DNA of 20,534 bases from a virus (lineage: Duplodnaviria > Heunggongvirae > Uroviricota > Caudoviricetes), in the IMG/VR virus record IMGVR_UViG_2737471824_000003; one strand, given 5' to 3'. The translations under genes and the position numbers were made by a program. This document shows positions 9,485 through 19,435 of this stretch, piece by piece. How positions within the stretch are numbered: the first letter of the stretch is position 1; each line of letters opens with the position of its first letter. The notes beneath the pieces are model-generated. The model saw nothing but the letters and a program-made list of their open reading frames with translations. It was not told the origin of the DNA and made no database searches.

Positions 9485-9518
9485 GGAGTTTACTCACATC
9501 TGACAAAATCAATATAAA

Positions 9519-9540
9519 CAGCCCCTCCGGAGAGGGGCTG
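9519..9540 (-). terminator. Rho-independent terminator (9-bp perfect stem, 4-nt loop, T-rich tail on minus strand)
   Basis: cagcccctc-cgga-gaggggctg. On the minus strand it is followed by TTTATATTGATTTT. Sits between the convergent cargo ORFs. Confidence 0.5.
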
Positions 9541-9931
9541 GAGAGTGGCGCTATGTGCCATTGCATGGTGCCGGGTGCCTCCCGGTGAATTCAGTACCAG
9601 CACCTGAATCCGCGATTATCCCATATACCTACTCGCTGATTGCCCCTCCGCACAGGGGGATTCACCATGCCAGTTTCTTTTAACAAACTCCCCGCAAACC
9701 AGACAACAGTCAACCGCCTGAATTGTGAAGTATTTAAAAATTTCTCCCGCTAACTGATACCCGGCTAACAGTCTGGCGTTTTCTTTTTCAGCAACGGGAA
9801 AGCAACAACCACCACACCCGCCACCAGCACACTGTCAGCCAGCACTGACATTATCCGGCTGCTGCAATGCCATTCACAAAAACAGTAAGCAATCACTTTT
9901 TACCGTAACAGGTGATAATCCAGATATGTAT

Positions 9932-10395: not shown

Positions 10396-10472
10396 TGGCG
10401 CGCTGTACTGGATTCGAACCAGTGACCGATTGCTTAGAAGGCAATTGCTCTGTCCGGCTGAGCTAACAACGC
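10396..10472 (-). tRNA. tRNA-Arg (anticodon UCU), 77 nt including CCA
   Basis: Reverse complement folds as a cloverleaf: acceptor GCGTTGT/ACAGCGC (one G-U pair), D-stem GCTC/GAGC, anticodon stem ATTGC/GCAAT with loop CTTCTAA, T-arm ACTGG-TTCGAAT-CCAGT, 3' GCCA. Differs from chromosomal argU as recalled, so phage-encoded. Confidence 0.9.
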
Positions 10473-10572: not shown

Positions 10573-10648
10573 TGGTGGCCCTTGCTGGATTTGAACCAGC
10601 GACCTGGCGATTATGAGTCGCTCGCTCTCACCACTGAGCTAAAGGGCC
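10573..10648 (-). tRNA. tRNA-Ile2 (anticodon CAU, lysidine type; ileX/ileZ-like), 76 nt including CCA
   Basis: Reverse complement GGCCCTTTAGCTCAGTGGTGAGAGCGAGCGACTCATAATCGCCAGGTCGCTGGTTCAAATCCAGCAAGGGCCACCA: perfect 7-bp acceptor stem, anticodon loop CTCATAA, T-loop TTCAAAT. Very close to E. coli ileX as recalled. An initiator or elongator Met identity is not excluded from sequence alone. Confidence 0.85.
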
Positions 10649-13490: not shown

Positions 13491-13646
13491 TTACTCCTCA
13501 GGTTCGTAAGCTGTGAAGACAGCGACCTCCGTCTGGCCGGTTCGGATTCGTACCTCGCAGAGGTCTTTCCTCGTTACCAGTGCCGTCACTATGACGGTTA
13601 AACAGATGACGATCAGGGCGATTAACATCGCCTTTTGCTGCTTCAT
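13491..13646 (-). CDS. hokD: Hok/Gef-family type I toxin (HokD/RelF-like), 51 aa
   Basis: Translates to MKQQKAMLIALIVICLTVIVTALVTRKDLCEVRIRTGQTEVAVFTAYEPEE, a canonical Hok (TM helix plus conserved Cys, C-terminal periplasmic tail). Below the ORF-track size cutoff. Confidence 0.9.
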   Translation of the reverse strand: MKQQKAMLIALIVICLTVIVTALVTRKDLCEVRIRTGQTEVAVFTAYEPEE

Positions 13647-13904
13647 AGCCTGCTTCTCCTTGACCTTTCGGTCCGTAAGAGGCTAATCTCTATGTGTCGC
13701 ATAGATATGGCCTCAGATTAATGTTAAGCGTCTTGCAGGACGCGTAATGTTAACTGGGGCTTTTCTCTATCTGCCTTTTGGTGTTCATGCCTGAGACAGA
13801 TAGCCTCAAGCACCCGCAGTAATTCTACTTAACTAAGATTTCCCCGCAAACCGTTTTTGTCCGGCACAGTAAATATCCAACTAAACCAATGGCGTTCGCT
13901 GTAT

Positions 13905-15012: not shown

Positions 15013-15426
15013 TTATTCAGTTCTGGATTTTGTCGCCCTGCGTATCCGCGCTTTCGCGTTACGCTCAATCTGAATTAGCTTTTCTATATTTTTTCGCCTT
15101 TCCCGCTCCTCCTGACGCAAGAGCCTTACATCATCTGCCAGTCTGGTTTCTCTTTTCGCCACAGAGAGCATCCAGTCAAATGGCTCCACAACTGCACCGC
15201 AGATTTTACAGCGGACCTGACGCTCTTTTTCGTCAACCCGGACAGAGGCGTGATGACAATATGGTCTTTCCGATGGCTCATAAAGAAAATTAACCTGATT
15301 ACGAGGGTCATCCTCTTTTACCGGAAATAAAACGATATTGCTTAACTCATCCTCTGGTTTTATTTCCATGCTCCTCTCCTTTGATGCGAATGCCAGCGGT
15401 AATTGAAGCCTGATAGCTAATTTCAC
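15013..15426 (-). CDS. hypothetical protein with zinc-ribbon-like CHH...CKIC motif (137 aa from GTG; 118 aa from ATG 15369)
   Basis: GTG 15426 is preceded by AGGAGG (7-nt spacer) inside a repeated GGTAATTTTCAGGAGG element. Charged/coiled C-terminus. Confidence 0.5.
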   Translation of the reverse strand: MKLAIRLQLPLAFASKERSMEIKPEDELSNIVLFPVKEDDPRNQVNFLYEPSERPYCHHASVRVDEKERQVRCKICGAVVEPFDWMLSVAKRETRLADDVRLLRQEERERRKNIEKLIQIERNAKARIRRATKSRTE

Positions 15427-15849
15427 TCACAGTACCGCCTCCTGAAAATTACCCTGATAGAAAGCCAGTACACGCTGCATAGCTTCACTCTTCCGGCACT
15501 CGCGACAGATTATGTTTAGGCGACTGTCGTAGCGACGTATTTCTCCGTCAGGTAACGACCAGATAAGGTCCGGATCAACCACAGCAGGTTTCTTCACCTT
15601 TGCCCTCGAGAGTTTTTTGCGGGCGTTTTGCCAGTCCTTACGCGCCTGTTCAGAGGGGAATAACCCGTAGCCGGAGTTGTATACATCGCCGCTGGCAACC
15701 AGCTCTCTTGCGAGAACGCTCATCAGATATCTTGTCGCACCTGTCTTGACTTCCAGTTGCCGTAACGTCTCACGCCCACTCTGGCGTACGAGTTCAACAA
15801 CCTGCCCTTTAATTTTTTCTCGCTCTTCTTGTGTAAAAACTTTTGCCAC
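15427..15849 (-). CDS. hypothetical protein, 140 aa (possible DNA-binding accessory protein of the replication module)
   Basis: GTG start preceded by the same GGTAATTTTCAGGAGG element. No Walker motif, so not a DnaC-type loader. Confidence 0.5.
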   Translation of the reverse strand: MAKVFTQEEREKIKGQVVELVRQSGRETLRQLEVKTGATRYLMSVLARELVASGDVYNSGYGLFPSEQARKDWQNARKKLSRAKVKKPAVVDPDLIWSLPDGEIRRYDSRLNIICRECRKSEAMQRVLAFYQGNFQEAVL

Positions 15850-15889: not shown

Positions 15890-16966
15890 TTACCCCCTGA
15901 AGCCCGGTGGAATTTCGGTATCCGGTTCAGAAATATGATTCACACAACGCTGGTTGTTCGTGCCGCTTACCGGGAGCAGCCAGGGGTTTTCAAAATTCCG
16001 GTCCGGTCCAAAAAACGTCGTCGCTCGCTGAACAAATTCCGTTCCCGTTTTCCCGGTAGCCGCAAGGTATCTTGCGTAACGCCTCACGCCATCCAGCATG
16101 GCCTCTGGTGGCACCCCCTCGCGTAATCTGGCTTTCCAGGCACTGAAAGCGGATTTCTTCGGGTTTGCCCCGGCACGCAACGGGTATTCCCGCCAGACCT
16201 GTTCGAACACATCAGGATAATCCACTCGTCCCATAGGCTGCCCGGTGTTTTCCGGGACTACCCGATCGGCTTCCCGCTGAATGGCGGAATCGGCTTCAGG
16301 CTGCTGAAGTTGGTGTGATTGCTCCTGCCTTGCGGTCATCACCTGCTGCACAGCGCCCGAATCGGCTTTCAGCGCATACGCTGAATCGGCTTCCGGTGTC
16401 GTGCCTGCGGGCTGGCCAGGAGTGACGGTCTGAACATCCCCTGCCTGGTTCGTGGCGTTTTTTACGCCATGGACCATAGTGTTTTGATCTTCTTGATCTG
16501 TATCTTTATCTGTATCTTTATCTGTCGTGACTCGTCGTGACATGTGCGTGACATTTCGTGACTCGCCGTGACAATCTCCATTTTGTTCCCGCTTTCTTTC
16601 CCTCTCTCGCTGCGCCCTCTTGCGCTCTGCCGGAGATTTTGCGGTTTGCGAAATATTGCCGTTGTCCTCTTTCAGCACCTGGCGTTTTTCCCATCCAGTG
16701 ATTAAATCACCATCAAGTATCCGCCCCTGCATCGTCTGCAAAATTGAATCAATTACCTCTTCTGTCACGTCGAGCGCACTTGCCAAATCTTCTGTCGTGA
16801 CATCAATGTGACCTCGCGTGACATTTCGTGACGCGCTCACCAGGAGGTGGATATACACTGCCATCACTGTTGCAATTGACTGCCCTGACACCCTGGCAAT
16901 TGTTCGCCACTTAGGGTCATTTGGCATGTCATGCCATAATCTGAGCCAGGCGTTAGCCATACTCAC
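15890..16966 (-). CDS. replication initiation protein (lambda O / YdaU-like replisome organiser), 358 aa, with the origin iterons inside the gene
   Basis: Position immediately downstream of the cro/cII-like genes. Helical-phase CGTGAC iterons plus an AT-rich tract lie inside the coding sequence, as in lambda O/ori. Conserved C-terminal block (FEQVWREYP..KKSAFSAWKARL). Start may be ATG 16960 rather than GTG 16966. Confidence 0.65.
   Translation of the reverse strand: MSMANAWLRLWHDMPNDPKWRTIARVSGQSIATVMAVYIHLLVSASRNVTRGHIDVTTEDLASALDVTEEVIDSILQTMQGRILDGDLITGWEKRQVLKEDNGNISQTAKSPAERKRAQRERERKREQNGDCHGESRNVTHMSRRVTTDKDTDKDTDQEDQNTMVHGVKNATNQAGDVQTVTPGQPAGTTPEADSAYALKADSGAVQQVMTARQEQSHQLQQPEADSAIQREADRVVPENTGQPMGRVDYPDVFEQVWREYPLRAGANPKKSAFSAWKARLREGVPPEAMLDGVRRYARYLAATGKTGTEFVQRATTFFGPDRNFENPWLLPVSGTNNQRCVNHISEPDTEIPPGFRG
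16525..16572. repeat. iteron cluster 1: five (T/G/C)CGTGAC repeats at 10-11 bp phasing, adjacent to an AT-rich tandem repeat (16486-16524)
   Basis: CGTGAC at 16526, 16536, 16547, 16557 and 16567. Flanked at lower coordinates by gatcttcttgatctgtatctttatctgtatctttatctg (GATC sites, tandem tctgtatcttta). Confidence 0.6.
16795..16832. repeat. iteron cluster 2: four (C/T)GTGAC repeats at ~10 bp phasing within the initiator N-terminal coding region
   Basis: tcgtgac 16795, tgtgac 16807, gcgtgac 16816, tcgtgac 16826; an inverted gtcacg copy at 16764. Confidence 0.5.
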
Positions 16967-19382: not shown

Positions 19383-19435
19383 TTTCTGGTGACGTTTGGC
19401 GGTATCAGTTTTACTCCGTGACTGCTCTGCCGCCC
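19383..19435 (+). ncRNA. dicF: DicF small RNA (antisense regulator of ftsZ and other targets), 53 nt
   Basis: Sequence TTTCTGGTGACGTTTGGCGGTATCAGTTTTACTCCGTGACTGCTCTGCCGCCC followed by a T-tract. Matches K-12 DicF as recalled; located between ydfC and dicB. Confidence 0.8.

Follow-up and report, generated by a model that had tools for sequence, protein, structure and literature searches.

A probable replication origin with two matching repeat arrays inside the initiator gene of a lambdoid prophage of Escherichia coli

Where does a lambdoid prophage start its replication if its initiator stands outside the O family, and why does its initiator gene carry the same short repeat in two separate places? 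The question is raised by a stretch of 20,534 nucleotides (nt) of a virus of the Caudoviricetes (IMG/VR record IMGVR_UViG_2737471824_000003), called the window in what follows. A replication initiator gene occupies positions 15890..16960 of its minus strand. Within the coding sequence lie two arrays of the hexamer GTCACG (CGTGAC on the plus strand), one in the codons of a linker and one in those of the N-terminal domain. Very probably this gene contains the origin of a common lambdoid prophage of Escherichia coli, and one binding specificity serves both arrays. Binding, unwinding, origin activity and the role of the second array are what we infer from sequence.

The linker array consists of five direct copies of GTCACG on the gene strand (16526..16572, minus strand). 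On the plus strand the copies of CGTGAC begin at 16526, 16536, 16547, 16557 and 16567, i.e., at spacings of 10, 11, 10 and 10 base pairs (bp). An earlier note on this DNA had reported five such copies 10-11 bp apart, and a motif search confirmed them. The extended unit is roughly (T/A)GTCACG(A/G)CGA and measures ~10.25 bp; TRF and a repeat search picked up the 10-bp array at 16524-16573. Elsewhere in the window the word is rare, with only 5 scattered copies in the remaining ~20 kb, both strands counted. The largest same-strand cluster per 50 bp held 1 or 2 copies in 300 Markov-1 simulated windows, compared with the 5 observed. The array takes up nt 389-435 of the gene and codes for amino acids (aa) 130-146, which fall within a predicted disordered linker between two domains of the protein.

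Directly after the last linker iteron follows a stretch of 40 nt that is AT-rich and is the putative DNA-unwinding element (16486..16525, minus strand; nt 436-475 of the gene). On the gene strand it reads ACAGATAAAGATACAGATAAAGATACAGATCAAGAAGATC and encodes TDKDTDKDTDQED. It contains 70% A+T and, on the coding strand, 72.5% purine; the minimum of guanine plus cytosine (GC) of the region is 27.5% at 16480-16519, against about 50-65% around it. Inside the stretch, TRF and the repeat search detected a 12-bp tandem, TCTTTATCTGTA, in 2.9 copies (16491-16525), and two GATC sites are present (16486-16489 and 16495-16498). The AT-rich tandem repeat with GATC sites that had been placed next to the array is indeed there. 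The 12-bp unit, which encodes DKDT, occurs in 2 to 4 copies among E. coli prophages that are 97-99% identical (L182, L051, L150).

The AT-rich and purine-rich run recurs in relatives of the gene. In 92 of 95 relatives, the AT content of the 40 nt that follow the final iteron exceeds that of the gene; the means are 64% versus 43% for AT and 74% versus 56% for purine. The letters themselves are also shared: lineages with different iteron words have a near-identical sequence after the last iteron, (A/C)(C/T)AGATAAAGATA... or AGAGAAGA..., in about 95 members. Their role could be simply that of an unwinding element, or they could be recognised specifically by some further factor. The AT-rich stretch of the window is immediately followed by an inverted repeat (16446..16476) with 13-bp arms, 85% complementary, and a 5-nt loop. 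It scored as terminator-like on the plus strand, antisense to the initiator gene, and may or may not be a part of the origin; in lambda, too, a palindrome lies on the far side of the AT-rich region of ori.

The N-terminal array (16796..16832, minus strand) has four direct copies in the orientation of the linker array. On the plus strand, CGTGAC is exact at 16796, 16817 and 16827, and 16807-16812 reads TGTGAC, with one mismatch. The second cluster of four repeats claimed in the earlier note is therefore present at the distance given, about 270 bp, with the correction that three of the copies are exact and one is degenerate. Missing from that list was an inverted copy at 16764..16769 (plus strand), 27 nt downstream of the array in gene direction. 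Over an extended 12 nt, TGTCACGTCGAG, this copy is the complement of linker copies 2 and 5. The residues that it specifies, D64-V65-T66, form the turn of the helix-turn-helix ahead of helix 67-77, and most relatives of the GTCACG type keep the copy at the same place (reverse complement, 192). The array itself codes for aa 43-55, which comprise the last residues of helix 3 and the loop that leads to the helix-turn-helix. The local GC content is ~47-52%, and no AT-rich run stands beside it. It is, like P1 incA, a second array of the same iterons away from the unwinding element.

The two arrays are 270 bp apart. An exact 11-nt repeat, TCTGTCGTGAC, occurs at 16521-16531 and again, 90 codons away, at 16791-16801, and over 39 nt the N array and the linker array are 72% identical. 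Recombination between the arrays at TCTGTCGTGAC would delete most of the N-domain in frame; the repeat could also mediate gene conversion between them. In the structural model described below, the codons of both arrays and of the AT-rich run correspond to a loop and a disordered linker, segments that are modelled with low confidence and where the protein would tolerate almost any sequence. A search for antisense promoters in the arrays yielded one weak match (9/12 of the consensus), which is composed of iterons and was judged uninformative.

Are the repeats a matter of DNA or of protein? The copies are read in all three frames (1, 2, 0, 2, 0 in the linker; 2, 0, 1, 0 in the N array), and this, together with the 10-11-bp period, means that no peptide repeat dictates them. 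The codons tell the same story. In 25 non-redundant genes of the GTCACG type, A43 is GCG, S44 TCA, V47 GTC, G50 GGT, H51 CAC, V54 GTC and T55 ACG in 25/25 each, and T48 is ACG in 23/25. V65, under the inverted copy, is GTG in 22/22 genes of this type. Neighbouring residues that are equally conserved use 3-5 codons; S61, for example, is written AGC, AGT, TCA or TCG. The mean share of the top codon amounts to 92% in the N array versus 53% at the neighbours (25 genes; Mann-Whitney p = 6e-7). Conservation at the DNA level thus exceeds that of the protein, and both arrays are evidently kept by selection on the DNA itself. The three frames and the frozen codons rule out a peptide repeat as the origin of the DNA repeats, the outcome by which the earlier note had proposed to refute its own reading.

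The peptide, in turn, appears to follow the DNA. The loop after helix 3 takes insertions made of extra iterons (codons ~45-60 in Escherichia albertii, L192, L102, L214, L212, L216 and L217), and the residue after an invariant Arg-Gly is restricted to His, Asn or Asp only where the iteron encodes that residue. One might suppose that the gene encodes its own specificity there, the loop residues H/N/D after R-G being the determinants. This idea is weakened, because GTCAC-type genes without an array at this place have H, H, D, Y, E or S. The loop peptide thus appears to be a passenger of the DNA word and not the specificity determinant.

A further argument for a common function of the arrays comes from the relatives of the gene. 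In total, 270 loci were gathered by tblastn against phage records, by four scans of viral contigs and by one scan with one genome per species. The viral-contig scan seeded with the window returned only E. coli copies of 97-99% identity; the diversity came from seeds of distant relatives and from the species-level scan. Pseudomonas phage P7869 and Aeromonas phage pAEv1818 have only the N-domain in common with the initiator, at 68% identity. Their C-domains differ, and the next gene encodes a primase/helicase in P7869 and a 'replicative helicase' in pAEv1818. Both phages carry four copies of GTCACG at 10-bp spacing (gene nt ~129-165), then an inverted one after ~30 nt, and in the linker (nt ~388-420) another three or four, behind which comes AGATAAAGATA... 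Since C-domains and neighbouring helicase genes differ, the N-domain is the only constant partner of the repeats. The same architecture is built from other words in Ralstonia phage Hennie, with GCAACG in both arrays, and in a metagenomic podovirus, with CGAACG in both.

For 43 non-redundant genes, the best linker hexamer with a 10-11-bp period was chosen de novo. It recurs 3-5 times in the N region, compared with 0-4 copies in ~2.8 kb of flanking DNA on both strands. Five word types were found on the gene strand: GTCACG, CGAACG, GCAACG, GTGACG and GTAACG. Linker and N region have the same top word in 40/41 genes, and the exception has lost its N array. The covariation recurs in the data with one genome per species. 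A periodic linker array is present in 103 of 108 non-redundant relatives, and in 82 of these the same word also forms an N array. Hennie-like and MW202785-like N-domains both include cases with GTCAC-type origins; the word types do not simply follow the protein clades, which implies several independent switches. Comparison with related initiator genes, as the earlier note had advised, thus finds arrays that recur and words that co-vary, and the co-variation across five motif types favours one of its two proposals for the second cluster, a second initiator-binding array; the other, autoregulation, may also apply.

That the protein is a replication initiator, as had been assumed from the start, is supported by a full-length match to phrog_3729, 'replication initiation protein' (E 2e-255; aa 3-358 against profile positions 1-356), and by the names that NCBI/PGAP gives to its relatives, 'phage replisome organizer' or 'DnaT-like ssDNA-binding domain-containing protein'. 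Its aa 130-358 also match phrog_1701, 'DnaD-like helicase loader', among the PHROGs. The list of open reading frames (ORFs) has it at 15890-16966 on the minus strand, 358 codons with a GTG start at 16966. Most likely, however, translation starts at the ATG at 16960, which yields 356 aa, because the relatives begin with MANAWLRLWH and GAGG lies 5 nt upstream of this ATG. A Pfam scan of the initiator gave nothing above threshold. Phage_rep_org_N (PF09681/TIGR01714) reached 16.2 bits versus a cut-off of 23.3 (E 0.01; profile positions 1-119 of 121), and only 2 of 43 relatives matched PF09681 at E <= 1.

An AlphaFold (AF2) model, built with 47 homologues, is of moderate confidence, with a mean predicted local distance difference test (pLDDT) of 72. 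It has helices at 4-14, 16-25 and 29-45, a loop at 46-55, a helix-turn-helix (56-63, 67-77), a beta wing (78-87) and a long basic helix (110-131); aa 130-158 are disordered, with a pLDDT of ~40. The predicted order of parts is accordingly a winged-helix DNA-binding domain (aa 1-~95), the basic helix (aa ~110-131), a disordered linker (aa ~130-160) and a C-terminal DnaD/DnaT-like domain (aa ~200-356). The C-terminal half (aa 160-358) is, at ~64%, common to the Stx phages 75/02 and PhiR5_2, whose N-domains differ. The breakpoint between the shared half and the differing N-domains lies just after the origin.

How does this compare with established origins? Those of lambda, SPP1 and TP901-1 have been defined by experiment (PMC7466680, PMC6316719, PMC5737612, PMC8965321). 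The ori of lambda lies in the middle of O, in the linker between a DNA-binding N-domain and a C-domain. There, too, transcription passes first through a block of direct initiator sites and then through an AT-rich run with a purine-rich coding strand; cro- and cII-like genes and a divergent repressor lie upstream of the gene; and N-domain plus origin form a cassette that recombines with different C-domains. The annotated lambda iterons occupy nt 349-433 of O, and then comes acaaaagacactattacaaaagaaaaaagaaaagatta; the corresponding part of the window gene is nt 389-475. The proposed likeness to the lambda layout is supported by this direct comparison. There are also differences. PF04492 (Phage_rep_O) matches lambda O (5.7e-36) and not the window initiator, in which no O homology is detectable. 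The lambda sites are four palindrome-like 18-bp sequences resembling ATCCCTCAAAACGAGGGA, about 20-24 bp apart, whereas the window has an asymmetric 6-bp core every 10-11 bp. No P-like loader gene follows the window initiator. Finally, lambda has only its four known sites, with no second array in the N-terminal coding region of O, so the second cluster is, as was originally stated, not the lambda arrangement.

In gene 38 of SPP1, boxes spaced by 11 bp (nt ~360-410) precede an AT-rich run (nt ~418-450). oriL thus resembles the window locus in having short direct repeats of ~11-bp spacing directly before an AT-rich unwinding element inside the gene. The AB boxes bound by G38P and the unwinding element suffice for replication in vitro (PMC5737612, PMC6316719). 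G38P shares with the window initiator the name 'replisome organizer' and a DnaD-like C-terminal part; that part matches PF09524, to which the window initiator has no match. SPP1 further differs by encoding its own loader and helicase, by N-terminal codons that contain no further array of the boxes and by a second, distant origin, oriR. A remote second origin of the latter kind was considered here and rejected: neither the window nor the complete 40-kb genome of phage Evi, whose gene is 98% identical, contains another cluster of the iteron word.

TP901-1 ORF13, like Rep2009 of Tuc2009, binds direct repeats within its own gene, which serve as the origin (PMC8965321). In the rep gene of TP901-1 the repeats lie at nt ~310-345, before an AT-rich run at nt 350-415. 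Its N-domain belongs to another Pfam family, HTH_36, and by exact k-mers it has no second array in the N-terminal part. The initiators of lambda, SPP1, TP901-1 and the window thus represent four different N-domain families. Two arrays with the same initiator word are known from iteron plasmids and phage-plasmids, such as P1 (incC/incA) and F (incB/incC), and from phage P4 (ori/crr). Only one array adjoins the unwinding element in these systems, and the arrays flank the rep gene or are kilobases apart in non-coding DNA; the initiators are of other families. In the window, both arrays are inside coding sequence.

Linker array and AT-rich run are therefore a new member of a well-known design, presumably lambda-like in its working and outside the O family. 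The conserved and co-varying second array in the codons of the DNA-binding domain is the less familiar addition, a new variation.

The origin reading has its weak points, and the following observations weigh against it or against parts of it. We found no experimental description of this origin family in the searchable literature, and the paper on the 'Eru' replication regions of Stx phages makes no mention of iterons or of this protein. The N-domain has no detectable homology to lambda O (hhalign probability 0.15%) nor detectable similarity to SPP1 G38P (0.1%). A Foldseek search of the modelled N-domain against the PDB produced no significant match (best E 0.23); the list consists mostly of winged-helix regulators (CRP/FNR, MarR, GntR), all with E > 0.2, a weak hint. 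As to the input of the host, no DnaA box was found near the origin at up to one mismatch. The covariation of the words rests on only ~4-6 independent switches, a number that is no tree count. About 16 of 103 relatives have no N array, and in a few its position or orientation is different: in L261 and L267 it lies further upstream (nt ~75-107), and L268 has five inverted copies at nt 65-102. The N array is, then, not an indispensable part of the origin. Two other observations speak for the reading. Genes without the N array have more linker copies, 5.3 versus 4.3 (p = 0.0014, with no correction for phylogeny); L099, L266, L227, L269, L259 and L251 have 6-8. The distances between the final N copy and the first linker copy cluster at 209-211, 218-221, 227-231, 238-242 and 249-250 bp, a periodicity with a permutation p of <= 0.0002 at 10-10.25 bp and of 0.002 at 10.5 bp, again with no phylogenetic correction. 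This quantisation fits a fixed helical register, but growth of the arrays by whole units can give the same.

If the gene does house the origin, events might proceed as follows. After induction, rightward transcription from the cro-side promoter would yield the initiator. Its N-terminal winged-helix domain would contact the phased copies from one side of the helix and assemble a multimer, similar to the O-some, at the linker array. The multimer would strain and open the adjoining AT-rich element, and the C-terminal DnaD/DnaT-like domain would recruit the helicase machinery of the host. The N array would offer this domain further sites; in the view that we prefer, it joins the complex by looping of ~230 bp and adds binding capacity. 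The latter fits the relatives that make up for a missing N array with more linker copies; for the looping, the chances are somewhat short of even. The protein would house the arrays in the loop and the disordered linker, the peptide there being carried along by the DNA word.

What else could the second array do? The alternative that survives best considers it a control element, where the initiator acts as a roadblock to RNA polymerase in its own gene, i.e., by autoregulation, or where the array titrates the initiator or pairs with the linker array of another copy (handcuffing). Titration and handcuffing are known to limit initiation in the control arrays of iteron plasmids, e.g., P1 incA. We regard such a role as a possibility to be taken seriously, if not as the probable one. 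Judged by the shared word, the N array would have the binding specificity of the origin array; it is away from any AT-rich element, occupies 5' codons of the initiator gene itself and has proved dispensable, movable and invertible over evolution. All this would suit a control site. The linker array, however, would be an equal roadblock, to which a second one adds little, and no promoter overlaps the N array. The greater number of linker copies in genes without it is better explained by a shared capacity than by opposing control, and a lytic phage origin needs control of copy number less obviously than a plasmid does. The function of the second array is amenable to synonymous recoding, which would keep the protein and destroy the sites.

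A stricter form of the preferred origin reading makes the N array obligatory: the origin would be bipartite, with initiator on the N array brought to the linker array by a loop of ~230 bp whose helical register is fixed. We consider this unlikely. If it were true, firing would be sensitive to transcription and translation through the 5' coding region of the initiator. Gene conversion between the arrays, both of which are written in tolerant codons of one gene, would switch the specificity of the origin in one step, which would explain the existence of at least five incompatible word types. The design would be one so far undescribed for phage origins.

The repeats might also be sites for another protein or process: a partition centromere, packaging, a host factor or an RNA signal in the initiator mRNA. 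Phased 10-bp repeats do occur in plasmid and phage centromeres, and in RNA the inverted copy could pair with a direct one. But the arrays travel with the N-domain while the C-domain and every neighbouring gene are exchanged, and position and AT-rich run match the three experimentally defined origins; the five inverted copies that replace the direct N array in L268 argue against a strand-specific RNA signal. There is little to be said for this explanation, and we give it a small chance at best. The idea that the repeats are a by-product of a repeated peptide (SRNVT or VT) or of an internal gene duplication, devoid of any function at the DNA level, can point to SRNVT at aa 44-48 and 134-138 (counted from ATG 16960) and to the 39-nt and 11-nt identities between the arrays, but is scarcely credible in view of spacings that are not multiples of 3, of the frames, codons and loop residues discussed above and of a peptide that changes wholesale with the DNA word, e.g., from SRNVTRGH to TATQGNADATRGN.

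The surroundings are those of a lambdoid prophage. Upstream of the initiator gene lie a cI-like repressor gene on the opposite strand and then cro/YdaS-like and cII/YdaT-like genes. Downstream (15013-15849) there are a DUF977/Ren-like gene and a zinc-ribbon gene, with no gene for a helicase or a loader, whereas in relatives with the same N-domain the initiator is followed by a primase/helicase, a 'replicative helicase' or dnaB. The genes around the initiator make up the early right operon of such a prophage; the window further includes Q, RusA, lysis and tail-fibre genes. Two RNAs exceed the Rfam gathering score: the DicF antisense RNA (19384-19435, plus strand, 76.7 bits) and the sok antitoxin RNA (13644-13815, minus strand, 106.7 bits). 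They mark an immunity region of the Qin/dic type and a hok/sok-type module in the prophage. Further features, all on the minus strand, are a match to the small RNA IS009 inside the ORF for tail-fibre assembly (1378-1576), the small RNA STnc100 (9510-9699) and, upstream of the Q/lysis region, tRNA-Arg(tct) (10396-10472) and tRNA-Met(cat) (10573-10648).

The origin cassette is anything but rare. It was found in 2210 of 5426 complete E. coli genomes, and in the scan with one genome per species relatives appeared across Gamma-, Beta- and Alphaproteobacteria and in some Acidobacteria. The locus offers a clear natural example of overlapping codes, in which a protein accommodates its own sites in a surface loop and a disordered linker, where the peptide follows the DNA word. 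Where these prophages start their replication bears on the biology of their induction, on annotation, on the design of origin-based tools and on decoys for 'phage-encoded resistance'. For prophages that reside in the same cell, different iteron words imply incompatibility and exclusion.

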